Assembly: GCA_040754455.1 (NCBI GenBank)
Contig: JBFMCP010000005.1
Coordinates: 47,926 to 111,925, forward strand
Direction: 5' to 3'
DNA from: Nitrospirota bacterium
GTDB taxonomy: Bacteria; Nitrospirota; Thermodesulfovibrionia; Thermodesulfovibrionales; Dissulfurispiraceae
DNA length: 64,000 nt
Made by a program: the position numbers and the translations under genes. Below are positions 1,184 through 25,896 of the stretch, piece by piece (positions within the stretch are counted from its first letter, which is position 1; every line of letters begins with the position of its first letter). Below the pieces are notes generated by a model. That model was not told the origin of the DNA. It did no database searches and saw only the letters and a program-made list of their open reading frames with translations.

Positions 1184-1672
1184 CTAGAAAGAGGCCTCTT
1201 TCTGCTCGAGCTGAAAGCCGATCTTTCTCAACTCAGCAGCGATCATTTCGACGAACTTGCCGATGTTATTCTGAATTTCCTCTGACATTGCGAGGCCGGT
1301 ATCCATGCATTTCGGTTCGATGCCGAGAAGCACAATGTGCTTCGGCATCTTCTCGGTAAGCTGTGCTGCGGCGAGGAGGTCGGAGAGGCCGAGCTGGTGG
1401 GGAGAAATTTTACTATAGAAAAAAGCGGGGACTTCATCGCCCTCCATGCGCACGATGGTGCCGGGAGGGTTTCCGTTCTTTACGACATCAATGACAAAGA
1501 CGTAATCTCTACCCTCAATGTAATGGAGAAGCTCTATTCCCATAGTGCCGCCGTCGATAACTTCGACGCCTTCGGGGATACGGTATTTCCTCTGGAACTC
1601 CTCCACCACCCGCACCCCTGCTCCCTCATCCATCAGGAGCAAATTTCCTATTCCCATTACTAAAACATTCAT
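1184..1672 (-). CDS. hybD: [NiFe]-hydrogenase maturation protease (HyaD/HybD family)
   Basis: GIGNLLLMDEGAGV, DGGT, SPHQ motifs; directly after the large subunit. Confidence 0.9.
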   Translation of the reverse strand: MNVLVMGIGNLLLMDEGAGVRVVEEFQRKYRIPEGVEVIDGGTMGIELLHYIEGRDYVFVIDVVKNGNPPGTIVRMEGDEVPAFFYSKISPHQLGLSDLLAAAQLTEKMPKHIVLLGIEPKCMDTGLAMSEEIQNNIGKFVEMIAAELRKIGFQLEQKEASF

Positions 1673-1725
1673 AAATGATCACCCTTTTATAATTTAACAT
1701 ACGTAGGAATGACACACCCTTAAAA

Positions 1726-1773
1726 AGGGGGCAGGGCAAAGTACTGAGAAAAATTCCAAGTACCATGCCCCTC
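1726..1773 (-). terminator. Hairpin between hybC and hybD (terminator or mRNA stabiliser)
   Basis: Minus strand GGGCATGGTACT...AGTACTTTGCCC, with a T run shortly after. Confidence 0.4.
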
Positions 1774-1791
1774 TCAAATAATTTATACCCC

Positions 1792-3492
1792 CTAAAACGC
1801 TTTGACTTTTACGACCTCCCTCTTCTTCGCATCCACCACATGGATTGCGCACGCAAGACACGGATCGAAAGAGTGGACGGTCCTCAACACCTCGAGCGGC
1901 TTTTCGGGATCAGCGACAGGATTGCCGATAAGAGATGCCTCATAGGGGCCGAGCGCATCCCCATCGTTTCTCGGGCCGGCATTCCAGGTCGAAGGCACCA
2001 CTGCCTGATAGTTTTTAATCTTCCCCTTATCGATCACCACCCAATGGGAGAGTACGCCCCTCGGCGCTTCGTGGAATCCGAAACCTTTGATCTCCCCCTT
2101 CGGAAATTCGGGACGATTGAAGGTTGTCATATCGCCTTTTGCAATGTTATTAACCAATGCCTCCCACTGACTCTTGAGGGTCTCATACATCACCGCGCAA
2201 CGCACTGCTCTCGCTGCATGGCGGCCGATGGTCGAGTGGAGCGCCGTTACCGGCACCTTAGCGCCGGCGAGGCTGCTCACTGTAGCAAGCGCTTTATCCG
2301 TATATTTCTTGGTGGGTGCATGTCCTGCGGCATACATACACAAAACATTTGCAAGCGGACCGACCTGAGCCGGCTTTCCATTAAAGCTGGGTGCCTTCAC
2401 CCAGGAATACTTGCCGTTGTCCTGGAAATTGGTATAGTGCGGGATCGTCTCCTCCTCCCACGGATGGCGCGTCCAGTTGCCTTCGTACCACGAATGTTTA
2501 ATGCTTTCTTTGACGCCTTTCTTGAAGGTCTCGTCCTGGAAGCTCGTGATCGGCTTGAAGCGGCCGATATCGCCGCCCTCGATGTAGCCGCCGGGATGCG
2601 CAAACACGGTTCCTCTGGAATCCATCGGGAAGTCGGGAACAGAAAGATAATTCGTTACTCCTGCGCCGTACTTGGTCCAGTCGGCATAGAAGGCGCCTAC
2701 TGCACAGACATCAACAAAATAGACATTGTGTACGAAGTCGCCGATCTCATCGATGATCGATTTGATGTAGTACAGCCGCTCCATCGTCAGTGTCGAGGGG
2801 CTGTCGGGGTTGATCGGATTGGCGACGCCGCCTACTGCCAAATTCTGGATATGCGGGGTTTTGCCGCCGAGGATCGAGACGATCATGTTTGCCTTGCGCT
2901 GGTACTCGAGCGCCTGGAGGTAGTGCGCTGCAGCGAGCAGGTTGACCTCGGGCGAGAGCTTCATGGCAGGATGACCCCAGTAGCCATTGGTAAAGATGCC
3001 GAGCTGGCCGGTGCCGACAAAGGCCTTGAGTCGGTCCTGCACCTCTTTGAAGTGCTGCGAGCTGTTCATCTTCCATGAGGAGACGCTCTGGGCGATCTGC
3101 GCTGTCTTCCTGGGATCAGCTTTCAACGCCGAAACGATATCCACCCAGTCAAGAGCGGAGAGATGATAGAAGTGAACAATGTGATCATGGATTGCATGAG
3201 CAGCGATAATGAGATTTCTTATATACTGTGCATTGACCGGCACCTCGAGGTTCAATGCGTTCTCGACGGCTCTTACTGACGCAATCGCATGCACCGTGGT
3301 GCAGACACCGCAGATTCTCTGGGTAAAGAGCCATGCCTCGCGCGGGTCTCTCCCCTTGAGGATGAGCTCGATGCCGCGCCACATCTGGCCCGACGACCAG
3401 GCGTTCTTCACCACCCCGCCGTCGATCTCGCAGTCTATCCTCAAATGACCTTCTATTCTTGTTACCGGATCGATGGTTATTCTTTTTGACAT
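1792..3492 (-). CDS. hybC: Group 1 (Hyb-type) [NiFe]-hydrogenase large subunit
   Basis: RICGVC and DPCLACAIH motifs plus cleavable C-terminal extension. Confidence 0.95.
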   Translation of the reverse strand: MSKRITIDPVTRIEGHLRIDCEIDGGVVKNAWSSGQMWRGIELILKGRDPREAWLFTQRICGVCTTVHAIASVRAVENALNLEVPVNAQYIRNLIIAAHAIHDHIVHFYHLSALDWVDIVSALKADPRKTAQIAQSVSSWKMNSSQHFKEVQDRLKAFVGTGQLGIFTNGYWGHPAMKLSPEVNLLAAAHYLQALEYQRKANMIVSILGGKTPHIQNLAVGGVANPINPDSPSTLTMERLYYIKSIIDEIGDFVHNVYFVDVCAVGAFYADWTKYGAGVTNYLSVPDFPMDSRGTVFAHPGGYIEGGDIGRFKPITSFQDETFKKGVKESIKHSWYEGNWTRHPWEEETIPHYTNFQDNGKYSWVKAPSFNGKPAQVGPLANVLCMYAAGHAPTKKYTDKALATVSSLAGAKVPVTALHSTIGRHAARAVRCAVMYETLKSQWEALVNNIAKGDMTTFNRPEFPKGEIKGFGFHEAPRGVLSHWVVIDKGKIKNYQAVVPSTWNAGPRNDGDALGPYEASLIGNPVADPEKPLEVLRTVHSFDPCLACAIHVVDAKKREVVKVKAF

Positions 3493-3513
3493 GGAATATT
3501 CCTCCTATAAAAA

Positions 3514-4650
3514 TTATGCGTGCTTCACATCTGGCAGCACCGGAAGGGTTTTGACAACTACCAGATACAACAGCACCTCCAGCGCTATGATGCCCAAGGT
3601 TATCATTGTCTCGGAAAAGGACGGGAAATAGTGCCACCCCGGACCGGGATCGAATCCTATTAAAAACGCGTTAAAACGGTAGACCGCTCCTGCAAGCAGC
3701 ATGAGCACCGCACCGATGAAGAGCATGCGCGGCCGTTCCCTGTTGACAGGCCTGAAGAGTATTACCATAGGTGCGATATACAATATATTTTCGATGATGA
3801 ACATGAAGCTTTTTATATCCAGCCTGAGAATTGCGCCGAGCTGTCCTCTCCAGAGGAGATCGCCGAATCTGAACACCAGATAGAGCAGGATAAGCTTGGG
3901 AATAATTGCCGAGAGCTTTGACAGCAGCGGGGTCTCCATCGGCCTCCTGAACCCGAGGGAGGAGATAATCGACTCGAACACCACAATCGCGTATCCCATC
4001 GTAATCGAAGAGATCAGGAAGAGCAGCGGGATGAAGTCGGTCTGCCACAGGGGTGAAACCTTCTGCCCCGCGATATAGATCAGCAATCCCAGTGATGACT
4101 GGTGCATGGTCGGCAGGAGCACGCCGATGGCGATAAATGCAAAGAGGACTTTTTTCAATACCTTGAGTACCTTCTCCTTGTTCCAACGCTCAAGGAATGC
4201 GGGGGTGAATTCTATCCAGAGCACCATGATGTAGGTCGTGACGCAGAGAGCCACCTCGAACATGACCGAGTTGAGCTGTGCGTACCACGGCAGGATGAGA
4301 TTATAGGCCTGCCAGTAGCGCCCTACGTCGAAAAAAATTGATACTCCCGCGAGCGTGTATCCGAACATGCTCGCAAGGATTGCAGCGCGTATGAGCGGAT
4401 AATAGGTCTTCTTGTTGAACACATAGATCAGCAGTGCCATCGCATACCCGCCGCAGGCAAAGGCGGTACCCACCACAACGTCATAGGCGATCCAGATACC
4501 CCACGGATAGCCGTCGCTCATATTGGATACCGCACCGATACCAAAGATGAATCTCTTGATGATCAGAATACCCGCAAAGAGCGCAAAAGCAGCCAGGACC
4601 AGAAAAGGCTTGGTGATGATTTTTCCTCCCAATGGCTTAAACCCTCCCAT
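3514..4650 (-). CDS. hybB: Hydrogenase-2 membrane subunit (NrfD family)
   Basis: Polytopic; PWGIWIAYD, LPTMHQSS motifs; operon context. Confidence 0.92.
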   Translation of the reverse strand: MGGFKPLGGKIITKPFLVLAAFALFAGILIIKRFIFGIGAVSNMSDGYPWGIWIAYDVVVGTAFACGGYAMALLIYVFNKKTYYPLIRAAILASMFGYTLAGVSIFFDVGRYWQAYNLILPWYAQLNSVMFEVALCVTTYIMVLWIEFTPAFLERWNKEKVLKVLKKVLFAFIAIGVLLPTMHQSSLGLLIYIAGQKVSPLWQTDFIPLLFLISSITMGYAIVVFESIISSLGFRRPMETPLLSKLSAIIPKLILLYLVFRFGDLLWRGQLGAILRLDIKSFMFIIENILYIAPMVILFRPVNRERPRMLFIGAVLMLLAGAVYRFNAFLIGFDPGPGWHYFPSFSETMITLGIIALEVLLYLVVVKTLPVLPDVKHA

Positions 4651-4667
4651 ATCTCTCTCCTTTATCG

Positions 4668-5621
4668 CTACTCATCTTTTTTTGTATTTCGATACACTGC
4701 ATACAGAAGGCCGCCCAGAAGGGCAACGGGTGCGATCATTCCCTTGTAGATCGTATGCTGGAGCCCTTCCGACCGTGCTGCATCAGACACCTCCGAGAGC
4801 TTCGGCATGCCGAGCTTGTCGAAGGGCACTCCCGCGAGCATAAGGATCTGCGTGCCGCCGCCGTCCTTTTCCCCGTAAAGGTAGGGATAATACTGTTCGA
4901 CAGCGCGTAACGATTTCTGGTCCGAGTTGATATGGGCCACAGGGAATTCGTACTCGTCTCCGGGTCTCAACGTCAATCGGCGGCGTGCCTCCGCCTGCAG
5001 ATCGGTGACCTTTCCGTACAGCGAGGCGCCGGTGGGACAGAACTCGCAGCATGCCGCATATTTGCCCTCTTTGAGACGGTGCGAACAGAGCTGGCACTTC
5101 CTGATCTGCGGGAACGGTTCGTCCCATTCGAACTTCGGGATGTTGTAGGGACAGGCGACCTGGCAATATCTACATCCGATACAGGCATCCTTGTTATAAC
5201 TCACAATGCCGGTCTTCGGGTCTTTGGTCAGTGCCGAGACCGGACAGGCCGAAACGCAGGAAGGATCGATGCAATGCATACACTGCCTTTTGACATAGGA
5301 GAAACCGTTCTCTTTATCTTTTTCAACTCCCGCGCCGTGCGTGTAGAGCTTGATGATGTTGAGCGTCTTTCCGGAAAGATCGAGGGGATTGTCATAAATG
5401 TTGTCCGTCGTCGAATGCTCGGGGGGCATGTTGTTGTACTGCTTGCATGCCGCAACGCAGGCCTTGCATCCGATGCAGAGGGTTGCATCATATAAAAAAC
5501 CGACAGCTTCGGGAGGCAGGGCTTTGGGAGCCCTCGCTGCCAGTGCAGAAGGGACATCCGCCGCGAGCAGCAGTCCGCCATAGGCTACTCCTTTCAAGAA
5601 GTCTCGTCTCTTCATATCCAT
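4668..5621 (-). CDS. hybA: Hydrogenase-2 4Fe-4S subunit
   Basis: Tat signal KRRDFLK; CIGCKACVAAC, CMHC..C...C, CIGCRYCQVAC; C-terminal TM. Confidence 0.92.
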   Translation of the reverse strand: MDMKRRDFLKGVAYGGLLLAADVPSALAARAPKALPPEAVGFLYDATLCIGCKACVAACKQYNNMPPEHSTTDNIYDNPLDLSGKTLNIIKLYTHGAGVEKDKENGFSYVKRQCMHCIDPSCVSACPVSALTKDPKTGIVSYNKDACIGCRYCQVACPYNIPKFEWDEPFPQIRKCQLCSHRLKEGKYAACCEFCPTGASLYGKVTDLQAEARRRLTLRPGDEYEFPVAHINSDQKSLRAVEQYYPYLYGEKDGGGTQILMLAGVPFDKLGMPKLSEVSDAARSEGLQHTIYKGMIAPVALLGGLLYAVYRNTKKDE

Positions 5622-5624
5622 GGC

Positions 5625-6797
5625 CTACTTCTCCTTCTTCCTGGGGTGCTCTTCCTTCTTCTCCGCATCCCTCTCATGCTCGCCGAGCCTCTTTGCCAGG
5701 GTAGCACCCGCTCCGATCGCAGCACCCGCAACCCCTGCCACCACAGCAGCGCCGAGCACGGTGGCGCCGCCGCCCTTCTCCTCATGAATACGGGGATAGG
5801 TCGAGGGGGGAGTAACGGTATGCAGCCTGGCGAGGGTGTGGAGCGGTGTACTGAATCCAACGCCCTTTTCAGAGCAGCCGAAGCAGGGATGGCCCGCACC
5901 GACAGGCCATGTGCCTGCACCCGTGTCGCCGAATTGCAGGGTCGAGCAGTTGTTGAAGGTCTCTGGTCCCTTGCACCCTAGTTTGTAGAGGCAATAGCCT
6001 TTTCTATGGTTTTCATCACCGTACTGGATGGCAAATCTTCCTGCGTCGAAGTGGGGCCGCCGCTCGCAGTTCTCGTGGATAACACGGCTATAGGCGAACG
6101 TGGGCCTGCCTTTTTCATCGAGCTCGGGGAGTTTTTTGAGAGTCAGGAAGTGGATAACGGTTGAGAGTAAATTATAGGGGTTCGGAGGGCATCCGGGAAT
6201 CGTGACAACAGGTTTGCCTTTCACAAGCTCTGTTATTCCTTTTGCGCCGGTGGGGTTCGGTCCGGCAGCGGGTATGCCACCCCAAGATGAGCAGGAGCCC
6301 ATGGCGATCACCGCTGCTGCGTGCGGATAGGTTTCATTCAGAATTTCAAGGGCGGTCTTACCACCGATCTTGCAGTAGATACCTCCCTCTTTTGTTGGCA
6401 CCGAGCCGTCGACCACGAGGATGAATTTGCCTTTGTTTTCCTGGATCGATTTCTGCTTCGCTGCCTCGACCTGATGGCCTGCGGCAACGCTGAGCGTTTC
6501 GGAGTAATCGAGCGAGATGAGATCGAGAAGGAGATGCTCCAGTGTAGGATGAGTGGAGCGCAGGAGAGATTCGACACATCCGGTGCACTCCTGGAAAGAG
6601 AGCCAGATCACCGGCGGACGTTTGGGGTTGGTAATTGCTTCTGCGATCTTCGCCCCCATGCCGAGGGGCAATCCCATACCGGCAGCCATGACCGTACAAT
6701 ACCTCAGGAAATCCCTTCGCGATATGCCGCCGAGCTTCTTTCTGACTTCAGCCTCATGCTCTTTCATAGTCTCCTCCGTCCTCTTTTCTTTGTTCAT
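5625..6797 (-). CDS. hybO: Hydrogenase-2 small subunit
   Basis: Tat SRRDFL; QECTGC, GCPP, HENC, CLYKLGCKGP, HPCFGC; C-terminal anchor. Confidence 0.95.
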   Translation of the reverse strand: MNKEKRTEETMKEHEAEVRKKLGGISRRDFLRYCTVMAAGMGLPLGMGAKIAEAITNPKRPPVIWLSFQECTGCVESLLRSTHPTLEHLLLDLISLDYSETLSVAAGHQVEAAKQKSIQENKGKFILVVDGSVPTKEGGIYCKIGGKTALEILNETYPHAAAVIAMGSCSSWGGIPAAGPNPTGAKGITELVKGKPVVTIPGCPPNPYNLLSTVIHFLTLKKLPELDEKGRPTFAYSRVIHENCERRPHFDAGRFAIQYGDENHRKGYCLYKLGCKGPETFNNCSTLQFGDTGAGTWPVGAGHPCFGCSEKGVGFSTPLHTLARLHTVTPPSTYPRIHEEKGGGATVLGAAVVAGVAGAAIGAGATLAKRLGEHERDAEKKEEHPRKKEK

Positions 6798-6850
6798 TTG
6801 CCTATGAATTCCATAATTTCAATGATTTTCTTCTTTTTCGTGTTATTAAC

Positions 6851-6878
6851 ATTATACTGTCAATAAATTTGTTGTCAA
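6851..6878 (-). promoter_or_regulatory. sigma70 promoter of the hyb operon
   Basis: TTGACA-16 nt-TATAAT on the minus strand, ~55 nt upstream of hybO. Confidence 0.7.
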
Positions 6879-7077: not shown

Positions 7078-7191
7078 TTATCTCCCGACAAAGTACATCT
7101 TCCAATAGATGAGGAAGATACTGTAGATGAGCAGCAGTGCGATGATACCCAGCGCAATCTTTGCAAACCATTTCGATCCCTTTTCCTTCAT
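7078..7191 (-). CDS. Small single-pass membrane protein, 37 aa
   Basis: MKEKGSKWFAKIALGIIALLLIYSIFLIYWKMYFVGR*; SD-like AGGGGG upstream; basic N-terminus plus ~20-aa hydrophobic helix; below the ORF-track cutoff. Confidence 0.7.
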   Translation of the reverse strand: MKEKGSKWFAKIALGIIALLLIYSIFLIYWKMYFVGR

Positions 7192-7323
7192 CTTGTCCCC
7201 CTGCGAATACAACAAAAGGTTACTACAATTGCACCATGCGCGTTAAGCGCCCCTCTTATCTTATATTCAGGATATATCCGGGGAAGAATGTCAAGTTAAT
7301 TCTTCTGTCAAAAAAAGAAACGA

Positions 7324-7803
7324 TTACGGGTGAGAGAGCATCGGCTCCAAAGCAGTGACAAGCAAAGATACTACGCGAGGCATGGCTGCAGCCACCGCAT
7401 CTGTCATTGCATCACCGAAGTGCACTACATCTTCCGCCTCTACGGCCCAGATGGCGATGTCCTCCGGAAGGTCGAATCCCATGCGCTTTCCGGCTTCGAA
7501 GGCGCAGGCGAGTGTCGTATCGTGCATCGACGAACTATGGAGGGTTGCCGGGACGTTGCGGAGGCTCAGCCGGTATACAGTACCGGCCGGCGCATTCCCG
7601 GTGCAGATCGCATCGATGAGGAACACCCTGTCATAGCCGATCATCTCTTCCATGAGTCTCAGTCCGCCTACGGATAATTCCTTTATATCGATCCCCTCAT
7701 GTTCCCGAACATGCTTCCTCAATTCCCGCGCAACGGCGATGCCGATGCCGTCATCACGAAGAATCGGGTTACCGAGGCCGATGATTAAGGTTTTTTTTAT
7801 CAT
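7324..7803 (-). CDS. Hydrogenase maturation protease for MvhA
   Basis: GLGNPILRDDGIG, SSMHD motifs; follows mvhA. Confidence 0.9.
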   Translation of the reverse strand: MIKKTLIIGLGNPILRDDGIGIAVARELRKHVREHEGIDIKELSVGGLRLMEEMIGYDRVFLIDAICTGNAPAGTVYRLSLRNVPATLHSSSMHDTTLACAFEAGKRMGFDLPEDIAIWAVEAEDVVHFGDAMTDAVAAAMPRVVSLLVTALEPMLSHP

Positions 7804-7817
7804 AGTAATAGAATCAT

Positions 7818-7898
7818 AGAATTCAGGAGCCAGGAGTCAGAAGCCAGAATAAAAGCTTTCCTTCCCCTTCTAGCTCCTGACTTCTGGATTCTGGCTCT
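7818..7898. repeat. Heptamer-periodic inverted repeat (AGGAGYC type)
   Basis: AGAATTC AGGAGCC AGGAGTC AGAAGCC ... TTCTAGC TCCTGAC TTCTGGA TTCTGGC. Confidence 0.8.
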
Positions 7899-7903
7899 AT
7901 GCT

Positions 7904-9388
7904 TTAATATTGCGACAGCTCCCTGATTACCTCTCCTGCTTGATTACGTATTCTGACCCTGAGCGGCATCTGTCCCGGCAGCGCATGGGTTGCGCAGGAG
8001 AAGCAGGGATCGTAGAGTCTGAACGCCATCTCTATCCTGTTCAGCAGCCCCTGTTCGATGATGGTGCCCTTGCTGATAAGGGTCTGGGCCGCCTTCTTAA
8101 CGGACATCGCAATCGGCGCGTAGTTGTTGGTAGTACCGACAACGAGATTGACTTTTTGCAGGATTCCTCGCTCATCGGTCCGGTAATGGTGCGTGAGCGT
8201 ACCGCGGGGCGCCTCCACAGCGCCGACTCCTTCAACGGGTGTTTCGGTAGGAATGACACGCACATGGGGATCGGTGATTTCAGGATCGACGATCAGCTCA
8301 TGCATGCGCTCCGCAGCATAGAGGAGCTCGATCAGCCGCGCCCAGTGTGTTGCGAGGCGGTAATGCACCGGCCCGTAACTGCCGTCGTCCCTTTTCGTGC
8401 CGAGCGTTGCATAGAACTGTTCGAAGGCCTCCTGTGCGCGGGGTGTGGCCATGCCCTTTGCAACATTGAGACGCGCCAGCGGCGTTGCACAATACACGCC
8501 GCTCTGAGCTCCATCGACAAAGCCCTTCCAGCCGACCGCCTTCAGATAAGGGAATTTAAGGTACGTCCAGGATTCGACACGCTCGGTAATGTGATCCCGG
8601 TAATCGCGGGGATGATAGTTCACCAATTCGTTCCCGTCGGGGTCAACAACGCGCACCCGGCCATCGTAAAAGTTGATATAACCTCTTTCATCAACAGTGC
8701 CCATGTAATAGGTACGGTGGGTATAGGCATCGGACACCATGAGGTCATGGTACTCGGGGTTCTGCAAAACGACCGAACGGAACAGATCGAGGCTCCGGAG
8801 CGCAAAAGCGATATTCTTTTCCGCTATGAGCTGAATCTCTCTCTGCTCCTCTCCGGTGAGCGCCTTGCTCCATCCGCCCGGAAGCCCGGCGCAGGGATGG
8901 ATCACTCTTCCGCCGACCAGCTGAATGGCGTGGTGGTTCCTTTTTCTGCACTCGATCACCTCTCTGCCGATATCGATGCCGATCTTCTGCAATACGCCGA
9001 AGATATTTCGCTCGGCAGGCGGCGCATCGGGCCCCACAATGAAATCAGGTCCTCCAAGGGCATAGAAGTGGGTCGTGTGGTCGGCAACGAAGAAGGCAGA
9101 GTAGAACATCTCCCGCAGCTTCTTTGCCGCAGGAGGAGGATCGACCCTGTACAAATCATCGAGCGCCTTGGTTGATGCTATGTGATGGGCTTCGGGACAG
9201 ATGCCGCAGATGCGGCTGGTGATATTCGGCATATCCTCTGCGAGGCGTCCGACACAGAACTGCTCGAACCCCCTCAACTCGGGGACAATGAAATAGGCAT
9301 TCGCTACCTCACCTTCGTCGTTGAGGAATATCTCAATCCTGCCGTGGCCTTCCAGCCTCGTCACCGGGTCAATGCTGATCTTCTTCAT
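7904..9388 (-). CDS. mvhA: Group 3c [NiFe]-hydrogenase large subunit
   Basis: RICGICP and DPCFSCATH; hdr/mvh context. Confidence 0.92.
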
Positions 9389-9394
9389 AATCGA

Positions 9395-9470
9395 TAAAGA
9401 TAAAAAATCAAAAAGAAAAAAGCAAAATTAATAAATTCATTACTTTTAATCTTTTCTTTTTGCATTTTAA
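9395..9470. repeat. Heptamer-periodic A-rich/T-rich inverted repeat
   Basis: AAAGATA AAAAATC AAAAAGA AAAAAGC AAAATT ... TTTTAAT CTTTTCT TTTTGCA TTTTAAT. Confidence 0.7.
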
Positions 9471-10468
9471 TCTCCCCTGAAGGGGTGCCGCGCCCTCTGT
9501 AGCAGCGAATGCGCCAGACTGAATTTATAAAAAGTCCCTGCCGGATCAAGAAGGGAATTGAGCGCATCTTCGATCTGCCTGCTTATCGCATCATCACCGT
9601 TCCCTTCGATATCGACCTCTACGATTGACGCCAGTGCAGAGAGCATCGCCGCGCCCTGATCGATGACGCCTTCGGCCGGCCCATAGCATCCGATGCAGGG
9701 CATGCCTGCCTTCGGACAGAGGGCTGTACAGCCGCTCCTGGTGGCTGGGCCCATGCAGACCATGCCCTGGTCGATAAGGCAGTTCTCTTTATCCGGGATG
9801 ATTTCGTGGAGGCGATAAAGCTTTCTGACCCGCTTTTCTCTTCGTAGGCGGGGACACTCTTCACAAAGGGCCTTTGCGCCTGCACCGATCACTGAACCTT
9901 TCGGAGGAAGATCACCGCCTTTCATCACCATATCTATGACCGTCTGAATCTGATGCGGTTCAGGAGGGCAGCCGGGAACCGAGTAATCCACATCAACGGT
10001 CTGCCGCAGACTTTTTACAGTGTCATGAAACGAGGGCAGATGGAGCTCCCCCTCATCGACTGTAGTAGTTACCCTGGGTGTTATCGAATAAGGATTATCG
10101 GTACTCGGATTTTCGAGATAGATGGAAGCAGCATGATCACGTGCACTCGACAGGTTCGACAATCCGGGGATACACCCCTCATACGCGCATGAGCCGAAGG
10201 CGACGAGCAGCCTCGATTTTGCTCTGAGCAGACGGGCCATTGCCACGTCATCATCATTACGGATAGCGCCGTTGAAAAAGGTGAGCGCTATAGCACCATC
10301 GGAAAGCGCTTCCACATCGCTTCGCTTGCCGTCCATGACACAGGGCCAGAAGACCGGCTCGAAGACAGTAGCAAAATCGAGTAGCTCCTCATGTATGCCG
10401 AGGAGCGCGATCTCGCACCCGCCGCAGGCAGAGGCCCAGTACATAGCGAATTTCGAACGTTCCTGCAT
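9467..10468 (-). CDS. mvhG: Group 3c hydrogenase small subunit
   Basis: ACGGC, GSCA, PGCPP, LCEECP, CMGPATRSGC, CIGCYGP; start moved to ATG 10468 (SD GAGGAGG, TGATG overlap with mvhD). Confidence 0.92.
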   Translation of the reverse strand: MQERSKFAMYWASACGGCEIALLGIHEELLDFATVFEPVFWPCVMDGKRSDVEALSDGAIALTFFNGAIRNDDDVAMARLLRAKSRLLVAFGSCAYEGCIPGLSNLSSARDHAASIYLENPSTDNPYSITPRVTTTVDEGELHLPSFHDTVKSLRQTVDVDYSVPGCPPEPHQIQTVIDMVMKGGDLPPKGSVIGAGAKALCEECPRLRREKRVRKLYRLHEIIPDKENCLIDQGMVCMGPATRSGCTALCPKAGMPCIGCYGPAEGVIDQGAAMLSALASIVEVDIEGNGDDAISRQIEDALNSLLDPAGTFYKFSLAHSLLQRARHPFRGD

Positions 10469-10902
10469 CACTGCCTCCTCCCGCTGATCACCTGAGGCCA
10501 CTGCAGCGGTCCCAGTGCCCGCAATGCCGCAGTCATCCTGTTTATCTTTTCTGAAAGAGCAGCTCCCTCTGAAGCAGAGACCCAGGCAAGCTGTATGCGC
10601 TCGCGCTCGATGCCGAACTGTCCGGCAAGATTTCGTACGAGATGAAAGCGTCCGAGGGTTCTTATATTGCCTGCCTCATAGTGGCATTCGCCGGGATGGC
10701 ATCCGGCAATGAGAACGCCGTCCGCTCCCTCCCGCAGTGCCTTGAGCACCAGCTGCGGCTCGACTCTTCCGCTGCACATGACCCTGATGATGCGGAGGTT
10801 CGGAGCAGAATGGAGACGCAGCGTGCCGGCGCGGTCCGCTGCGCGGTAGGCGCACCAGTTGCAGAAGAAACCGACAATAACAGGCTCGAAAGAATTAATC
10901 AT
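10468..10902 (-). CDS. mvhD: Hydrogenase iron-sulfur (2Fe-2S) subunit
   Basis: FCNWCAY, RVMCSGR, GCHPGECHY, WVSASEG. Confidence 0.95.
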   Translation of the reverse strand: MINSFEPVIVGFFCNWCAYRAADRAGTLRLHSAPNLRIIRVMCSGRVEPQLVLKALREGADGVLIAGCHPGECHYEAGNIRTLGRFHLVRNLAGQFGIERERIQLAWVSASEGAALSEKINRMTAALRALGPLQWPQVISGRRQ

Positions 10903-10967
10903 AAGCCTCTACTCTATTGAGAGCGTTTTCGCATTAAGCAGTGAAGACCTGAACCCCTTGTGGCAGA

Positions 10968-11052
10968 TTAAAAATTAAAAAGAAAAATGAAAAATTGAGG
11001 ATTCCTTATTTTTGAATTTTTCTTTTTTATTTTTAATTTTACCTTTTTATTC
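10968..11052. repeat. Heptamer-periodic A-rich/T-rich inverted repeat
   Basis: TTAAAAA TTAAAAA GAAAAAT GAAAAAT TGAGGATTCC ... T-rich mirror arm; core shared with the copy at 59252. Confidence 0.75.
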
Positions 11053-11086
11053 TGTACAACCGATGAGCGCATCCGTCAGGTTTGTA

Positions 11087-13069
11087 TCATATCTTCCTGT
11101 CTCGATCATATAATATGCCTTCGATCTCCGCCATCATCTGTTCGTCGGTAAAGTGATCACTGGTGATCGCCCTGGCAGGGCACGCAGCCACACAGGCGCC
11201 GCACCCCTGGCAGAGGGCAGCATCGATGTCCGCCTGATTGCTCTTCTCATTCATAGAAAGAGCACTATAGGGACAAAGATCAAGGCACATCCGGCATCCG
11301 CTGCACCGCTCCTTGTCGATGCTCGCCCGTATCGGCTCGAGCTCGATAGTCCCTTTATTAATAAGAGAAAGGATCTTTGCTGCAGCAGCGCCTGCCTGTG
11401 CAATGGTCTCGGTTATATCCTTCGGTCCCTGGCAGGCTCCTGCTACGAATATCCCCTCGCGCAGGGTAACGACCGGATCGAGCTTGGGATGCTTCTCTGC
11501 AAAGAATCCCTCGCTGTCGCATTCAACACCGAGCAGCCGGGCAACAGAGCGTGCATCGGCCCTCGCTTCCATGGCGGTGCTCAATACCACCATGTCCACG
11601 GGGATACGCCGCTGGATGCCGAGCAGTGTATCCTCAGCCTGGATGACGAGCTTGCCTTCTTCTTCAGGATAATATGCCGAGTCCATAACAGTCGCCACCC
11701 GTCCCCTGACGAAATGGATCTTTTCACCCAGGAGCTTCTGGTAGAACTCCTCATAGGTCTTCCCCCCTGCCCTCATGTCGATGTAAAAATTGTAGACAGA
11801 AGCCCCGGTCTTCTCCTTTATAAGGTGGGCGAACTTCAGCGAGTACATACAGCAGACCTTTGAACAATAATCGTGGTAGTTCTTATCGCGGCTCCCGACG
11901 CAATGGATAATCGCAACACTTTCAGGCTCGGCGACCCGGTCTCTGAGCATGACCTTTCCGCCGGTAGGCCCGGCAGCGCTCAGCATACGTTCAAGCTCGA
12001 TACCAGTAAACACATTGGGGTATCTGCCGTACCCGTACTGCGGGATCCGCAGGGGATCAAAAAGATCAAAGCCCGTCGCAATAACGATATTCCCCACCGT
12101 AAGGGTAAGCGTTGTATCGCTCTGGTCGAACCGGACCGCCTGGGCAGGACACTCTTTCTCGCAGATCCTGCACTGGCCCAATTCGAAAAAGGAGCAGATG
12201 TTCCGGTCGATTACCGGATAACGGGGGACCGCGCCGGCAAAGGGAATGGCGCATGCCTTCCGCAAACCGAGTCCTGCCTCGAAATCGTTATCGTGCACCT
12301 CCTGCGGGCACTTCTGCTGGCAGATGCCGCATCCTATGCAACGGTCCTCGTCGATAAAGCGTGCCTTCTTTCTCACTTTTATAGTGAAGCTGCCTGCCCT
12401 CCCCTTCGCTTCCTCAACCTCGCTATACGTCAGGAGCGTTATATGCGGGTGCCGGCGTACTGCTGCCATGCGCGGATCGAGCATGCAGTCGGCGCAATCG
12501 AGGGTAGGAAAAGTCTTATCGAGCTGTGCCATGCGGCCACCGATACTCGGTGCCCTCTCCACCAGATAGACCTGCCTGCCCGCATCGGCTATCTCGAGTG
12601 CCGCCGTGATGCCGGCGATGCCTCCTCCGATGACAAGCGTATCAGGATTGACCGGCACCGATATCTTCGACAGAGGTTTGTGATGCAGGACCCGATGGAC
12701 AGCAGCCGAGACCAGTGCCTTGGCCTTCTCGGTCGCAGCCGCCGTGTCGCCGGCAGTCCATGCATCATGCTCCCGCACATTGACGATCTCGCAAAAGTAG
12801 GGGTTCAATCCCGCCCGTGCACAGGCCTTCCTGAAGGTTGGTTCGTGCAGATGCGGCGAGCAGGCGACGATGACAATACGGGAGAGACTGTTCTCCTTGA
12901 TATCACGCTCGATCAACCCCTGCCCGTCGCCTGAACACATGAAACGGTCATCTCGGACAACAACGACATTGCCCAGCGTCGATGCAAAAGATGCGAGGGC
13001 TTTGATATCGAGACCCTCGGCGATATTCGTCCCGCAATGGCAGAGATAGACGCCTATCCTCTCACTCAT
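11087..13069 (-). CDS. hdrA: Heterodisulfide reductase subunit A (FAD, Fe-S)
   Basis: CHCGTNI, GGGIAG, DKTFPTLDC, CVGSRD, CSKVCC, ferredoxin motifs. Confidence 0.95.
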   Translation of the reverse strand: MSERIGVYLCHCGTNIAEGLDIKALASFASTLGNVVVVRDDRFMCSGDGQGLIERDIKENSLSRIVIVACSPHLHEPTFRKACARAGLNPYFCEIVNVREHDAWTAGDTAAATEKAKALVSAAVHRVLHHKPLSKISVPVNPDTLVIGGGIAGITAALEIADAGRQVYLVERAPSIGGRMAQLDKTFPTLDCADCMLDPRMAAVRRHPHITLLTYSEVEEAKGRAGSFTIKVRKKARFIDEDRCIGCGICQQKCPQEVHDNDFEAGLGLRKACAIPFAGAVPRYPVIDRNICSFFELGQCRICEKECPAQAVRFDQSDTTLTLTVGNIVIATGFDLFDPLRIPQYGYGRYPNVFTGIELERMLSAAGPTGGKVMLRDRVAEPESVAIIHCVGSRDKNYHDYCSKVCCMYSLKFAHLIKEKTGASVYNFYIDMRAGGKTYEEFYQKLLGEKIHFVRGRVATVMDSAYYPEEEGKLVIQAEDTLLGIQRRIPVDMVVLSTAMEARADARSVARLLGVECDSEGFFAEKHPKLDPVVTLREGIFVAGACQGPKDITETIAQAGAAAAKILSLINKGTIELEPIRASIDKERCSGCRMCLDLCPYSALSMNEKSNQADIDAALCQGCGACVAACPARAITSDHFTDEQMMAEIEGILYDRDRKI

Positions 13070-13985
13070 TCTTTGTCCTCATCCGTTTTTTCGGCTCTTT
13101 TGTTTCAGGGCGCCCTACTTTCATTTTCGTGAGCACCGGTTCAGCGGAAACAATCTCTTTTCCGATGCCGAGGACAAGCGGGTCAAGCCCGAAGGCCAGT
13201 CCCATGAGCTGGGTAAAGAAGAGGACAGGGATGTTGAAATGAGTATTAAAATGCTTATTCACATCATCCTGGTAGGCGTCGAGATTGATCTGGCATACCG
13301 GACAGAGGACCGCAATGGCGTCCGCTCCGCTCTTCTGAGCGCTCTTCAGTATCCTGCGCAGGAGCTCGTAGGCGGTGATCGCTTTTATATGGGGCATATG
13401 TCCGCCGCAGCAGTTCGATTTCATCGAGAATTCGGCCACTGTTGCGCCGAGTGCAGTGAGGATTCTATCCATAGAGGTCGGATGCTCGGGATGGTCGAAC
13501 CCGTCACCCGGCCTCGTCAGCATACATCCGTAGAACGGGGCGATGCGCAGATTGCTGAGAGAGGTAGTCACTTTGGTGAAGAGTGCATCCACTCCCACAT
13601 CGTTGAGAAAGATGTCGAGGAAATGGCGAATCCTGAGCACGCCAGGATTGTAGTGAAGTCCGCCTTCAGCAAGGGCGTCATTGACCGCCTCATTGATGTC
13701 AGGATGCTCATGCATCACCTTATCGGTCCTCCGCAGATTCGAAAAACAGAGGCTACAGGAGGTAATCACCTGGCTATGCCCCTGAGGGACCAGAGCCAGG
13801 TTGCGCGCCGAGAGCGCGTAGTGGGCAAGACGGTTGATCGAGAGATACTCCGTAGCACCGCAGCAGTTCCAGTCGGGGATGTCGGTCAGCTCGATATTGA
13901 ACAGCTCCATCACCGCTCTGGCCGACTGCGTGTAGGCTGCAGCCATGTGCTCTGAGGAGCAGCAGGGGAAAAGGGCGTATCTCAC
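13062..13985 (-). CDS. hdrB: Heterodisulfide reductase subunit B (CCG domains)
   Basis: WNCCG, CSLC, YGC, CCGG, CPVCQ. Confidence 0.93.
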   Translation of the reverse strand: MRYALFPCCSSEHMAAAYTQSARAVMELFNIELTDIPDWNCCGATEYLSINRLAHYALSARNLALVPQGHSQVITSCSLCFSNLRRTDKVMHEHPDINEAVNDALAEGGLHYNPGVLRIRHFLDIFLNDVGVDALFTKVTTSLSNLRIAPFYGCMLTRPGDGFDHPEHPTSMDRILTALGATVAEFSMKSNCCGGHMPHIKAITAYELLRRILKSAQKSGADAIAVLCPVCQINLDAYQDDVNKHFNTHFNIPVLFFTQLMGLAFGLDPLVLGIGKEIVSAEPVLTKMKVGRPETKEPKKRMRTKNE

Positions 13986-14911
13986 GGTTTTCTTTCTCTC
14001 TCTTTAGCCTTGTTCACAATACGTCGCAGTTGCTCAATACCCTCGATCTTCGAGGGACCCAGGACGATCCGCTCCTTTTTGTAGAGTTTCAGTGCCAGCG
14101 AACCCCAGGAATGCCGGTCGGCGGGATTATGGTCCAGACGGTAGCGCATGGCGAGACCGAAATCGAAGCTGCGGCCGTACTTCTCGATGAGATTGATAAA
14201 TGTCTTCGAGAAGTCATAGGCATCGGTGATCTTGACAATCCCCTCGCGCACTGCCATTTGCTTGAGGGTGTACATGATATCGGTGATTGGGATCTGCTGG
14301 GGACATCGCACGGTGCAGTAATAGCAGGAGACGCAGAACCATGGAGTATTGCTCAAAAGGACCTCCTGCTTCAGCCCGGCCAGCAGCATGGCAAAGAGGT
14401 GGCGCGGCGTGTAATCCATGTCTTCGGCAGAAGGGCACGAGCCGCCGCATGTTCCACATTGCAGGCACCTCGTGAGCGTGCTCCCCTCCGGCGTTTCAGC
14501 CATAACCGCCTCCAGAAAGCTGCGGCCCTCTGTGGTTTCCCTATCCATCGCAATCCGCAGCCGTTCGCTTTTTTTCCTGAAGGGATTGTCGATCTGGTCA
14601 GCCCCGCTGACGAGCCGCTCTTTCTCGGCAGACACATCTTCCTGGTACATCTGAAAGGTCTCTTTTATTTCAACGAGATTGAACCCCTTGCTCTTGAGCG
14701 CGAAGATCCACTTTATTGTCTCGATAACGCTCTGGGGATAGAAGAATTTGACGCCGCCCGTACCCTGCCCTTTTCTGATCCCCTTGGGAAGCAGGCCCGA
14801 CTGCACATAAAATTGGAAAGTCCTCTTGGTGAGCTTGTACCCCTCATCAGAGAGCAGTCTGATAATCTCGTCGAGCGTATAAAAAGGGATGGCATCCAAA
14901 GATGTTTCCAT
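13982..14911 (-). CDS. hdrC: MerR-like HTH domain fused to heterodisulfide reductase subunit C
   Basis: N-terminus YTLDEI..LTKRTFQFYVQSGLLPK..KFFY..IKWIFALKSKGFNLVEIKE; C-terminus CLQCGTCGGSCP and CVSCYYCTVRCP; start at ATG 14911 because the track's TTG 14947 coincides with the -35 box. Confidence 0.85.
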   Translation of the reverse strand: METSLDAIPFYTLDEIIRLLSDEGYKLTKRTFQFYVQSGLLPKGIRKGQGTGGVKFFYPQSVIETIKWIFALKSKGFNLVEIKETFQMYQEDVSAEKERLVSGADQIDNPFRKKSERLRIAMDRETTEGRSFLEAVMAETPEGSTLTRCLQCGTCGGSCPSAEDMDYTPRHLFAMLLAGLKQEVLLSNTPWFCVSCYYCTVRCPQQIPITDIMYTLKQMAVREGIVKITDAYDFSKTFINLIEKYGRSFDFGLAMRYRLDHNPADRHSWGSLALKLYKKERIVLGPSKIEGIEQLRRIVNKAKERERKP

Positions 14912-14918
14912 CACTATA

Positions 14919-14947
14919 TATATACTGTTAGTAACAGCATCTGTCAA
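14919..14947 (-). promoter_or_regulatory. hdr operon promoter with a palindrome in the -35/-10 spacer
   Basis: TTGACA gatgCTGTTAcTAACAG TATATA tatagtg ATG. Confidence 0.65.
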
Positions 14948-15012
14948 GGAAAAAACACCATGGCGTGTAAAAAAGTAATATGACTTGCTGATTCAACATA
15001 TTTTTTCGATAG

Positions 15013-15041
15013 TTGACAATATCATAGGGTATGCGTAAACT
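15013..15041 (+). promoter_or_regulatory. argS promoter (very short or no leader)
   Basis: TTGACA-17-TAAACT, 8 nt before ATG, no SD. Confidence 0.6.
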
Positions 15042-15049
15042 TAAAAGTT

Positions 15050-16669
15050 ATGGAAAAAACTTTAAGAGAAATTCTCACGAAGATCGGGTATGCCGAGGTC
15101 GAAATCGAGGTACCGAAAGAGGAATCCTTCGGCGACCTGTCGACGCCCCTGCCGATGAGCCTCACCAAAGTCCTCAAAAAAGCGCCGCGAAAAATCGCCG
15201 AAGAGCTCGTTGCCAAAATCGAAGGCAGTGATATATTCGAAAGGGTCGAAATTGCCGGCCCGGGGTTTATCAACTTCACGTTCAAGAGATCATTTATTTT
15301 TAACGAGCTGAGAAGGCTCATTGCCGAACAGGAGGCCTTCTTGAAAGAGGATGTCGGCAGGGGCAGACGGATACAGATCGAATTCGTGAGCGCCAATCCC
15401 ACCGGCCCTATGCATCTGGGCCATGGAAGGGGCGCAGCACTCGGAGCAGCGCTTTCCAACCTCCTTCAGGAGGCCGGCTTCAGTGTTGAGAAGGAATTCT
15501 ATATCAACGATGCAGGACGCCAGGTCAGGCTGCTGGGACTTTCGGTCTTTGCAAAATACAAACATCTTTACGGCATGAACTATTACGCCTTTCCCGAGGA
15601 CGGCTACCGTGGAGCATACGTGGAAGACCTCGCACGGGAACTGCATGAAGCGTACGGCTCAAGCTTTGCGGACAAGGAGTTTGAGGAAGTAGCACCGACA
15701 GTGATCGATTTCGCCTATCAGAAGATGCTCGCAGTGATAAAAAAAGACCTCGAAGACTTCGGCGTCATCTTCGATACGTGGCAGAGCGAGAGAGAGCTTT
15801 ATGCCAACGACGAGGTCAACAAGGCAATCGCCGATCTCAGAGAGCGCGGTTACATTTACGAAGAAGAAGGCGCCACATGGTTCAGATCAACCGCCTTCGG
15901 CGATGACAAAGACAGAGTCATCATAAAGAAAGACGGCGAATACACCTATTTTGCGCCTGACATCGCTTACCATAGAAAGAAAATCCAAAAAGGTTTTGAC
16001 GAGCTCATCGATATCTGGGGGGCCGACCACCACGGCTACATCCCGCGCATGCAGGCGGTCATACAGGCATTGGGCTACCCGAAAGAGAGCCTGCGCATAA
16101 TCCTCGTACAAATGGTCGCGCTCCTGAAAGGCGGTCAGCCGGTGCAGATGTCGAAGCGCGCCGGTGAATTCATCACCTTGCGAGAGGTCATCGATGATAT
16201 CGGAGCGGATACGACCAAGTTCCTCTTCCTGACGCGGAGATCGGACAGCCACCTCGAAGTGGATATCGAAGTCGCAAAGGCACAGTCGTCGGAGAACCCG
16301 GTCTACTATGTCCAGTACGCCCACGCACGTATCAACAGCATTTATGAGAAGGCGAAACAGGAATCAGTAGCACTCGATTTCACCGATTTCAATGGCGAGG
16401 TCTTCAATGATGAGGAAGTGCGCATCATTAAAAAGCTGCTGCTCTATCCGCTGATGTTCAGAAGCGCCGCGCTGGCGCATGAGCCGCACCGTATCACCTT
16501 TTACTTACAGGAACTGGCAGGCATGTTCCATCCCTATTACCACAAATACAAAGTCGTTTCCGAAGATGCGGAACTCACCAGGGCGCGCCTCGCCCTCTGC
16601 GAAGCAGTTCGGATCGTCCTGAAACACGGCCTGAAAATCCTCGGCGTCAAAGCGCCAGAGAAGATGTAA
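15050..16669 (+). CDS. argS: Arginine--tRNA ligase
   Basis: EFVSANPTGPMHLGHGR, MSKRAG, YVQYAHAR. Confidence 0.98.
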   Translation: MEKTLREILTKIGYAEVEIEVPKEESFGDLSTPLPMSLTKVLKKAPRKIAEELVAKIEGSDIFERVEIAGPGFINFTFKRSFIFNELRRLIAEQEAFLKEDVGRGRRIQIEFVSANPTGPMHLGHGRGAALGAALSNLLQEAGFSVEKEFYINDAGRQVRLLGLSVFAKYKHLYGMNYYAFPEDGYRGAYVEDLARELHEAYGSSFADKEFEEVAPTVIDFAYQKMLAVIKKDLEDFGVIFDTWQSERELYANDEVNKAIADLRERGYIYEEEGATWFRSTAFGDDKDRVIIKKDGEYTYFAPDIAYHRKKIQKGFDELIDIWGADHHGYIPRMQAVIQALGYPKESLRIILVQMVALLKGGQPVQMSKRAGEFITLREVIDDIGADTTKFLFLTRRSDSHLEVDIEVAKAQSSENPVYYVQYAHARINSIYEKAKQESVALDFTDFNGEVFNDEEVRIIKKLLLYPLMFRSAALAHEPHRITFYLQELAGMFHPYYHKYKVVSEDAELTRARLALCEAVRIVLKHGLKILGVKAPEKM

Positions 16670-16863: not shown

Positions 16864-16903
16864 CTCTTTACCCCCCTTTTGAGCTGTTTGGCCCGCCGGA
16901 ATG

Positions 16904-17746
16904 CTAAAATATCCCCCGTTTCACGGCATCGGCAACTTTTGCCACTCTCACCATCTCCTTCACATCATGGACCCTGACAATGTGCGCGCCGTTGAAGATG
17001 GAGATCGCCACAGCTGCGGCGGTGCCTTCGAGCCGCTCGGTGGCGGGGACATCGCCGAGGATCTTGCCAATAAAGGCCTTCCGCGAGACACCCATGACGA
17101 TCGGCTTGCCGAGCTGCGTGAATTCCCTAAGATTGCAGATGATCTCCAGATTGTGTTGAAAGGTCTTGCCGAAACCGATGCCGGGATCGATGAGAATCTT
17201 GTCCTCAGCGATGTTGTGCTCGCGGGCGATCTGGATGCTGCCCCGCAGGTAATCCATGACTTCGGGAATGAGCGCTTCATAAACAGGGTTCTGCTGCATG
17301 CTCTTCGGTGTGCCCTTGATGTGCATGACCACCACTGGTACGCCGTATGCGGCAGCGACCTTGGGCATCTCGGGATCGAATCGCAGTCCGCTGATATCGT
17401 TCACCATCGAAGCGCCTGCATCGAGGGCACGCCGTGCAACCTCTGCCTTGTAGGTATCGATGGAGATAGGAACATTTATCTCTTTTGCAATGGCCTGTAT
17501 GACGGGAATGGTGCGATTGATCTCTTCTTCCAGGGGCACGGGGTCGGACCCCGGCCTTGTCGATTCACCCCCGATATCGAGGATATCGGCGCCGTCCTGG
17601 ATGAGCTTATAGGCATGTTCGACCGCCTTTTCCCTGTCGAAAAAGAGCCCGCCATCGGAAAAGGAATCGGGGGTGATGTTGAGCACCCCCATGATGTAGG
17701 TTCGGTTGCTGAAATCCAGCGCAAACTTCGACCACGCGATCTTCAT
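16904..17746 (-). CDS. folP: Dihydropteroate synthase
   Basis: MGVLNITPDSFSDGG, GGESTRPG, DPGIGFGK, SRK, RVHDV. Confidence 0.97.
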   Translation of the reverse strand: MKIAWSKFALDFSNRTYIMGVLNITPDSFSDGGLFFDREKAVEHAYKLIQDGADILDIGGESTRPGSDPVPLEEEINRTIPVIQAIAKEINVPISIDTYKAEVARRALDAGASMVNDISGLRFDPEMPKVAAAYGVPVVVMHIKGTPKSMQQNPVYEALIPEVMDYLRGSIQIAREHNIAEDKILIDPGIGFGKTFQHNLEIICNLREFTQLGKPIVMGVSRKAFIGKILGDVPATERLEGTAAAVAISIFNGAHIVRVHDVKEMVRVAKVADAVKRGIF

Positions 17747-17806
17747 AGCTCAAAAATAAAGGCCGAGACCTTATCGATCTCAGCCTTATCCTTAATCCTA
17801 AGGTTT

Positions 17807-19639
<1,833 letters not shown>

Positions 19640-25407: not shown

Positions 25408-25426
25408 CGCGATGAGGTGATCCACC

Positions 25427-25849: not shown

Positions 25850-25896
25850 TCATAACTCGCGATGAAAGGCCTCACAAATCATAACATCTGTCATCC

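Follow-up and report, generated by a model that had tools for sequence, protein, structure and literature searches.

A protein that joins an N-terminal MerR-type winged helix-turn-helix (HTH) domain to a heterodisulfide reductase subunit C (HdrC)-like iron-sulfur domain is encoded in a 64,000-nucleotide stretch of a Nitrospirota genome of the family Dissulfurispiraceae (contig JBFMCP010000005.1, positions 47,926 to 111,925), which is referred to as a whole as the window. The fusion gene, merR-hdrC, is the first gene of an hdrCBA-mvhDGA operon. The new observation is a palindrome, TGTTA-N-TAACA, that is conserved upstream of the fusion gene, where it lies in the promoter in the window, and is also present at a hydrogenase promoter. 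On balance, the evidence somewhat favours a model in which the N-terminal domain (N-domain) binds this palindrome as an operator and represses its own hdrCBA-mvh operon together with the neighbouring periplasmic-type [NiFe] hydrogenase operon, a proposal drawn from sequence comparison.

To our knowledge, the control of Hdr/Mvh-type electron-bifurcating complexes and their hydrogenases is little understood in bacteria outside model organisms. A first-pass annotation of the window had proposed a self-regulating Hdr/Mvh subunit and knew of no described case; likewise, no description of a MerR-HdrC fusion was found in the full-text literature searched, which does not cover subscription journals.

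The N-terminal domain of the fusion protein

The fusion gene is a single uninterrupted open reading frame (ORF), as the first-pass annotation had stated, and lies on the minus strand, a detail missing there. The N-terminal strings quoted in that annotation (YTLDEI, TKRTFQFYVQSGLLPK, FFY and ALKSKGFNLVEIKE) are all present in the ORF, and its recognition of a MerR-type winged HTH was borne out by profile matching, structure prediction and fold comparison alike. The Pfam model MerR_1 (PF13411) matches residues 26-87 with 26.4 bits (curated cut-off 21.6, E 7.5e-6), and the NCBIfam CueR and MerR models match residues 27-96 weakly. A profile search of PDB sequences was also weak, with MerR 4ua1 as the best match (E 6.4e-4) and neither TnrA nor GlnR among the 11 matches at E<=1. 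The ESM Atlas yielded small MerR-family clusters only (best score 0.93).

Modelled alone with AlphaFold2 (AF2) from a 14-sequence alignment, residues 1-95 reach a mean predicted local distance difference test score (pLDDT) of 85.5 and a predicted template modelling score (pTM) of 0.73. The predicted elements are a strand (10-12), two helices (13-22 and 29-37), two wing strands (45-48 and 54-59) and two further helices (60-74 and 79-94). Foldseek comparison of residues 1-95 with the PDB retrieved NmlR, GlnR, CvkR, TnrA, MtaN and CueR at a probability of 1.00 and a template modelling score (TM) of 0.57-0.69 on the query, and SoxR at a probability of 0.97-0.99 (2zhh: TM 0.67, root mean square deviation (rmsd) 1.5). 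From a probability of about 0.9 upwards, every listed match is a MerR-family chain, and most of these were solved on DNA; the E-values are merely 0.01-0.4, as expected of a small domain. The structural matches also include the MerR-fold protein CbpM, in a structure with a bound J-domain (3ucs, TM 0.61).

In the AF2 model of the full-length fusion, pLDDT is 82-96 over residues 11-90, and the linker residues 97-118 are disordered (pLDDT <50). This disorder, together with a pTM of 0.45, indicates that the two domains are not confidently docked on each other. Foldseek searches with the full-length model are led by the HdrC chains of 5ODH, 5ODC and 8RVU (probability 1.00), and the most complete match to the N-domain is GlnR 4r4e (TM 0.78 on the target, rmsd 2.3). 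Judged by profile and model evidence, the N-terminus is a true MerR-type winged HTH.

The predicted recognition helix and wing (residues 30-56) hold 16 of the 22 invariant positions of the N-domain alignment, R30, K43 and R46 among them. An alignment of 31 sequences contains no conserved cysteine in residues 1-130. No MerR-type coiled coil was found after helix 4, where the segment is unconserved (0.24 on the measure given below), 17-47 amino acids (aa) long and poorly modelled at residues 97-118; since the linker may be only 17 aa long, a long helix that could build a coiled coil is not conserved. An additional N-terminal helix of the TnrA/GlnR type is not predicted either, as residues 1-9 are unstructured and unconserved and strand 10-12 alone precedes helix 1.

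The HdrC-like domain and gene start

The enzyme part carries both CxxCxxCxxxCP motifs that had been noted before, and these (C149/152/155/159-P160 and C193/196/199/203-P204) are invariant across the 31 aligned sequences. Pfam Fer4_8 and 4Fe-4S dicluster models match residues 146-207. The best NCBIfam model for the protein is HdrC TIGR03290, although its 90.2 bits stay below the equivalog cut-off of 160, and HdrC NF041779 scores 73 bits against a cut-off of 350. Because these scores lie under the equivalog cut-offs, this part is most safely called HdrC-like. Family scores agree with the earlier placement of the gene at the head of hdrCBA-mvhDGA, and the reported 4-nucleotide (nt) overlap with hdrB was recovered as GTGA, shared by the hdrC stop TGA (13984-13982) and the hdrB start GTG (13985-13983).

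The ATG of the fusion gene lies 7 nt past the putative -10 element in the window (14909-14924, minus strand) and 6 nt past it in the related locus L002 (5962-5979), and no Shine-Dalgarno sequence is present; the mRNA may be leaderless in both. In the related locus L001, by contrast, the gene has a leader of about 40 nt that holds a second operator-like copy and an AAGG. A further in-frame ATG occurs in the window at residue 137 (14501-14513, minus strand), 12 residues ahead of the first cluster motif and with GGAGG 5 nt 5' of it. The Shine-Dalgarno word at this ATG is missing in L001 and L002, and no start is listed there in L003 and L004.

Conservation and origin of the fusion

The fusion is not confined to one genome, as a stop-loss event would be. 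Among the best 120 of 3747 matches at E<=1e-3 (5172 candidates from a clustered protein collection), 27 are full-length fusions of 279-340 aa, each covering at least 94% of the query at 49-99% identity, and 24 of them carry a precomputed PF13411 assignment. The other listed matches are unfused HdrC proteins about 176-201 aa long. The named sources of the fused homologues are Nitrospirota, Dissulfurispiraceae and, once, a 'Proteobacteria bacterium', and one JGI protein name reads 'heterodisulfide reductase subunit C/DNA-binding transcriptional MerR regulator'.

Conservation was expressed as the mean frequency of the commonest residue per region in the 27 fused sequences. This value is 0.70 for the winged HTH (residues 11-87), in which there are zero gaps, 0.76 for the HdrC part, and 0.24 for the linker (residues 88-130), the length of which varies as stated above. 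The HTH is hence conserved about equally to the enzyme part, whereas the linker is not. In a FastTree analysis of the HdrC parts of 120 sequences (the window protein P0001 and the listed matches, minus P0002), for which no root was inferred, the 27 fused sequences and three short ones form a single branch with a support of 100, separate from the 90 unfused sequences. The short members of the fused clade, P0026 (from a 996-nt contig), P0030 and P0031, may be fragments, miscalled starts or losses. The single well-supported branch and the sustained conservation of the HTH fit an origin of the fusion in one event, followed by its maintenance.

An internal methionine (M122, in MDRETT) had been considered as the sole start of HdrC, but this residue is not conserved. 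Across five DNA loci (the window and L001-L004), no in-frame internal start with a ribosome-binding site common to all was found. A frameshifted relative of the fusion, P0122, does exist.

An exhaustive search with residues 1-95 gave 136 matches at E<=1e-3, just 7 of them at E<=1e-10. Stand-alone relatives of the N-domain were not found in a word-indexed search of proteins of 30-168 aa, and the short near matches are ambiguous as candidates: P0122 is the frameshifted fusion, and unrelated C-terminal tails are present in P0123 and P0125. A Pfam scan of 49 of the 136 matches assigned MerR_1 to 37, one of which (P0124) also has Fer4 domains, and no Pfam family to 10; the remaining two, Ig-repeat autotransporters, are spurious, glycine-rich matches. 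The same HTH subtype heads many proteins of 250-320 aa (P0127, P0129-P0133 and others), the C-terminal ~200 aa of which match no Pfam family. By their sequences, these proteins are an uncharacterised MerR-like family, and the HTH subtype thus occurs with other partner domains.

A palindrome at the fusion-gene and hydrogenase promoters

Read on the minus strand, the palindrome at the fusion gene is a perfect CTGTTA-C-TAACAG (14937-14925) within the spacer of a putative promoter. The second exact copy of the core TGTTANTAACA lies at a promoter with 12/12 consensus matches, which fronts the periplasmic-type [NiFe] hydrogenase operon. Two exact copies in the 64-kb window compare with 0.02 expected, and two were reached in 0 of 100 shuffles. 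The 13-bp pattern with <=2 mismatches gave four matches versus 0.84 expected; four were reached in 2 of 100 shuffles, so that this count is uninformative alone. A one-mismatch version, TGTTATTAACC, within the hydrogenase large-subunit gene (2145-2155) may be due to chance. An RNA hairpin is ruled out as the origin of the palindrome, because a 1-nt loop cannot form one.

The related loci L001-L004 were obtained by scanning GTDB species genomes with the N-domain alignment and stem from four metagenome-assembled genomes (MAGs), three of Nitrospirota and one labelled 'Proteobacteria'; identity in the N-domain is 56-78%. In all four, ORFs of hdrB and hdrA size come after the fusion gene, together with mvhD; the mvhD, mvhG and mvhA genes were assigned by Pfam, and hdrB and hdrA by ORF size and order. 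The mvhG and mvhA genes precede the fusion gene in L001 and L002 and follow it in the window, L003 and L004. Each related locus (~12 kb) contains one exact TGTTANTAACA, always intergenic and upstream of the fusion gene, compared with 0.002-0.013 copies expected per locus from a first-order Markov model. When all 9216 inverted-repeat patterns with 5-nt arms and a spacer of 0-8 nt were enumerated in the five upstream regions, TGTTA-N-TAACA was the sole pattern present in five of five, and the only other inverted repeat found in at least two was the same site in a shifted register.

The position of the palindrome relative to the promoter differs between loci. It occupies the spacer of TTGACA-17-TATACT in L001, where a one-mismatch copy follows between promoter and ATG, and the spacer of TTGCAT-18-TATACT in L002. 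In L004, it ends 13 nt ahead of the ATG and adjoins a GAGAGGG ribosome-binding site. In L003, about 470 nt separate it from the fusion gene further downstream; the region belongs jointly to a divergent [NiFe] hydrogenase operon, and a one-mismatch copy adjoins the site. The hydrogenase operon of L001 also has a one-mismatch copy, placed in the spacer of TTGACT-16-TATAAT.

Two like-built tandem promoters precede the periplasmic-type hydrogenase operon in L001 (10440-10600) and L002 (10290-10450). Both consist of TTGAC-, about 4 nt, an 11-nt element, G and TATAAT; a near-palindrome occurs in the first and a degenerate version in the second (TTTAGTAATAG / TTTGTTAATAG).

Proposed mechanism and alternative explanations

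In the model considered here, a bacterial HdrC-like subunit of an HdrABC-MvhADG complex would have gained its MerR-type winged HTH once. The N-domain, presumably as a dimer, would bind the palindrome, which at near-consensus sigma-70-type promoters lies in the spacer, covers the -10/+1 region or follows closely downstream, and binding would repress both hdrCBA-mvh (autorepression) and the adjacent periplasmic-type [NiFe] hydrogenase operon. Repression, rather than activation, is suggested by these positions at optimally spaced promoters, which are near-consensus with spacers of 16-18 nt in the window, L001 and L002. The operator evidence, with a conserved palindrome in the promoter region before the fusion gene, strengthens the idea of a self-regulating structural subunit; the part that concerns DNA binding stays a prediction. 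The further suggestion of a SoxR-like reading of the cluster redox state is not supported and is weakened by the lack of conserved N-domain cysteines, the variable linker and the 16-18-bp spacers.

The absence of a coiled coil and of N-domain cysteines, together with the variable, flexible tether, makes the amount of the subunit or its assembly state (free versus in complex), the latter already suggested in the first-pass annotation, a more likely signal than the redox state of the clusters, the allosteric transmission of which seems unlikely through a tether unconserved in length and sequence. One rather doubtful elaboration is an Fe-S/assembly checkpoint, in which free fusion protein without clusters or partners represses both operons and incorporation into the complex removes it from DNA. 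If true, the iron-costly Hdr-Mvh complex and periplasmic hydrogenase would be tuned by the building state of the enzyme, with no separate sensor. A protein part of about 95 aa and a 13-bp site form a small testable circuit, with a candidate operator common to two hydrogen-metabolism operons. If confirmed, the motif could be used for predicting hydrogen regulons in Nitrospirota MAGs.

Several observations count against autorepression by the N-domain. Its link to the motif consists of co-occurrence in five loci alone, and neither the AF2 models nor the conservation pattern revealed a dimerisation element in it. The palindrome is very compact, with 11-13 bp and two G/C positions 8 bp apart, and in L003 it may serve only the divergent hydrogenase operon. 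The -10 element of merR-hdrC failed a consensus promoter scan, because TATATA ends in A and not in T, and the promoter TTGACA-17-TATATA was thus not listed. The right arm and G of the palindrome directly adjoin the -10 element in several promoters; since degenerate versions also occur in further L001 and L002 promoters, some of the conservation could be promoter architecture, but no -10 element adjoins the second L001 site or the copies of L003 and L004. Added to these are the deviations from MerR and TnrA/GlnR in operator size and N-terminal helix described in the last section.

An alternative that is unlikely but has to be taken seriously assigns the palindrome to a different, unlinked regulator of hydrogen metabolism, with the MerR-like domain of HdrC serving, for example, protein-protein contact in or around Hdr/Mvh, as in CbpM-CbpA. 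The co-occurrence link, the missing dimerisation element and a palindrome unusually short for the MerR family are all compatible with it, as is the structural match to CbpM in complex with a J-domain. Against this, the recognition helix and wing hold most of the invariant residues, conserved basic ones included, the best structural matches are DNA-bound regulators, and the motif follows the fusion-gene promoter despite the differing gene order, with mvhGA up- or downstream. Nor is another regulator gene conserved near the motif: apart from the fusion itself, none of the five loci encodes a transcription factor within ~6 kb, and the regulator gene closest to it in the window belongs to the Fur family (25427-25849, beside feoB).

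It is distinctly improbable that the protein is a canonical MerR/SoxR-type activator, which would bind the spacer, remodel the DNA upon a redox change of the HdrC clusters and turn the operon on. The palindrome does take the classical MerR position between -35 and -10 in three promoters, the run TATATATATA in the window permits a reading with a 19-nt spacer, and SoxR is among the fold matches. Yet spacers of 16-18 nt with near-consensus hexamers need no activator, and the copies over -10/+1 (window hydrogenase promoter) or downstream of the promoter (second site of L001, L004) are in repressor positions; the coiled coil and the N-domain cysteine motif are also lacking, and the linker is unconserved at 17-47 aa. 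Least probable is that the N-domain is a decaying relic or annotation artefact and that functional HdrC is made from an internal start. The ATG at residue 137 with its GGAGG, present in the window only, the three short proteins nested in the fused clade and the frameshifted P0122 could be read in this way, but the HTH is conserved like the enzyme part and without gaps across 49-99% identity, no internal start is conserved among the five loci, and one of the short proteins, P0026, stems from a contig of merely 996 nt.

Feature coordinates and neighbouring genes

Table 1. Fusion gene, associated operons, promoters and palindromes in the window
Feature	Position	Strand	Basis or remark
merR-hdrC fusion ORF (P0001)	13982..14911	minus	309 aa + stop, uninterrupted
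N-terminal MerR-type winged HTH, residues 11-87	14651..14881	minus	Pfam, AF2, Foldseek, conservation
Variable linker, residues 88-130	14522..14650	minus	low conservation, length variation, low pLDDT
HdrC-like 2x[4Fe-4S] domain, residues 131-309, two CxxCxxCxxxCP motifs	13985..14521	minus	Pfam, NCBIfam, alignment, Foldseek
hdrB	13062-13985	minus	Pfam/NCBIfam scores
hdrA	11087-13069	minus	Pfam/NCBIfam scores
mvhD	10468-10902	minus	Pfam/NCBIfam scores
mvhG	9467-10501	minus	Pfam/NCBIfam scores
mvhA	7904-9388	minus	Pfam/NCBIfam scores
Hydrogenase maturation protease	7324-7803	minus	Pfam/NCBIfam scores; last of listed operon genes (rest of operon 7324..13985)
Palindrome CTGTTA-N-TAACAG, core TGTTANTAACA at 14926-14936	14925..14937	no strand	in spacer of putative merR-hdrC promoter
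Putative merR-hdrC promoter: TTGACA (14947-14942), 17 nt, TATATA (14924-14919), then 7 nt, ATG	14919..14947	minus	by eye and homology to L001/L002
Second exact TGTTA-N-TAACA copy	6841..6851	no strand	overlaps -10 end and start-site region of hydrogenase promoter
Promoter TTGACA-16-TATAAT, 12/12 matches	6851..6878	minus	best-scoring promoter site in 1000-16000
Periplasmic-type [NiFe] hydrogenase operon	1184..6797	minus	candidate second operon of the regulon
[NiFe] hydrogenase small subunit	5625-6797	minus	
Hydrogenase operon Fe-S subunit	4668-5621	minus	
Hydrogenase operon cytochrome b	3514-4650	minus	
[NiFe] hydrogenase large subunit	1792-3492	minus	
HyaD/HybD-type protease	1184-1672	minus	

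A small ORF (7078-7191, minus strand) with a G-rich ribosome-binding site, situated past the maturation protease gene and ahead of the hydrogenase promoter, encodes 37 aa with a hydrophobic core (MKEKGSKWFAKIALGII...) and may specify a small membrane protein. A 439-aa ORF without family match (16901-18220, plus strand) runs antisense to folP (16904-17746) and ftsH (17807-19639) and is probably not a gene. The Fur-family gene mentioned above is flanked by two feoB genes (657 and 752 aa), which together form an iron-uptake cluster (23434-28395) about 10 kb from the hydrogenase genes. In L004, from the 'Proteobacteria' MAG, the fusion operon adjoins divergent hypF, hypB and hypD hydrogenase maturation genes (2055-5113).

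Comparison with known systems

The enzyme part resembles methanogen HdrC (5ODC, 5ODH) in its two CxxCxxCxxxCP motifs, its hdrB, hdrA and mvhDGA neighbours and its fold (probability 1.00, 33-34% identity). Unlike the methanogen subunit, it is bacterial (Nitrospirota), stays at 90 bits against the equivalog cut-off of 160 and carries an additional N-terminal domain. The two HdrC subunits of the methanogen complex in 5ODC are reportedly far apart.

The textbook example of a trigger enzyme is PutA, a proline dehydrogenase whose N-terminal domain binds DNA and represses the enzyme's own operon. PutA is a single-polypeptide enzyme, in which a ribbon-helix-helix domain is combined with a flavin-redox/membrane switch. 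Both proteins covalently join a redox enzyme to an N-terminal DNA-binding domain, with DNA binding being predicted for the fusion, but here the domain is a MerR-type winged HTH and sits on one subunit of a multi-subunit Fe-S/flavin complex.

Canonical activators of the MerR/SoxR type have operators in promoter spacers of 19-20 bp and activate transcription by DNA distortion; in SoxR, the cysteine cluster motif belongs to the regulator itself and is located next to the dimerisation helix. The fusion shares with SoxR, CueR and MerR the N-terminal winged HTH fold and an operator-like site between -35 and -10 in three promoters. It differs in having no antiparallel coiled coil, no effector pocket and no SoxR cysteine motif, and in spacers of 16-18 nt compared with 19-20 nt. 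The site itself covers 11-13 bp, compared with more than 22 bp for MerR sites according to PMC4335299.

As described in the same paper, TnrA and GlnR are MerR-like winged HTH proteins without a coiled coil that act at optimally spaced promoters and bind, as weak dimers, the 17-bp site TGTNA-N7-TNACA; they read T-G-T via Arg28/26 and Tyr32/30 of the recognition helix (spacing i, i+4), need an extra N-terminal helix of 11-20 residues for dimerisation and respond to glutamine synthetase, which switches them by way of the C-terminal tail (PMC4335299). The fusion is comparable in its winged HTH without coiled coil, its optimally spaced promoters and its short palindrome with a TGTNA half-site, and GlnR and TnrA are among its best fold matches. 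Its invariant R30 and Y/F34 are likewise placed at i and i+4 in the predicted helix 29-37, and the half-site also starts with TGT. These residues would correspond to the TnrA/GlnR arginine and tyrosine, in a register supported by the HMMER alignment to MerR 4ua1. The parallel extends to regulation, in that GlnR autoregulates its own operon and the enzyme acts on a region C-terminal to the HTH (PMC4335299). There, however, a separate enzyme binds a short tail, the half-sites are N7 apart and the extra N-terminal helix mediates dimerisation, whereas here an enzyme subunit is covalently fused, the half-sites are separated by N1 and no such helix is predicted.

The winged HTH fold is thus common to the fusion protein and all three groups of regulators, but the fusion lies outside each of them: outside canonical MerR because it has no coiled coil and no long promoter spacer, outside the TnrA/GlnR subfamily because it lacks the extra N-terminal helix and has a different half-site spacing, and outside the SoxR-type sensors because its regulator part has no cluster motif. 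If the proposed mechanism is confirmed, the protein would represent a third MerR-type regulator architecture besides canonical MerR and TnrA/GlnR, and a multi-subunit Fe-S enzyme would join the short list of trigger enzymes. Its proposed function resembles that of PutA-type trigger enzymes and of the pair formed by GlnR and glutamine synthetase.

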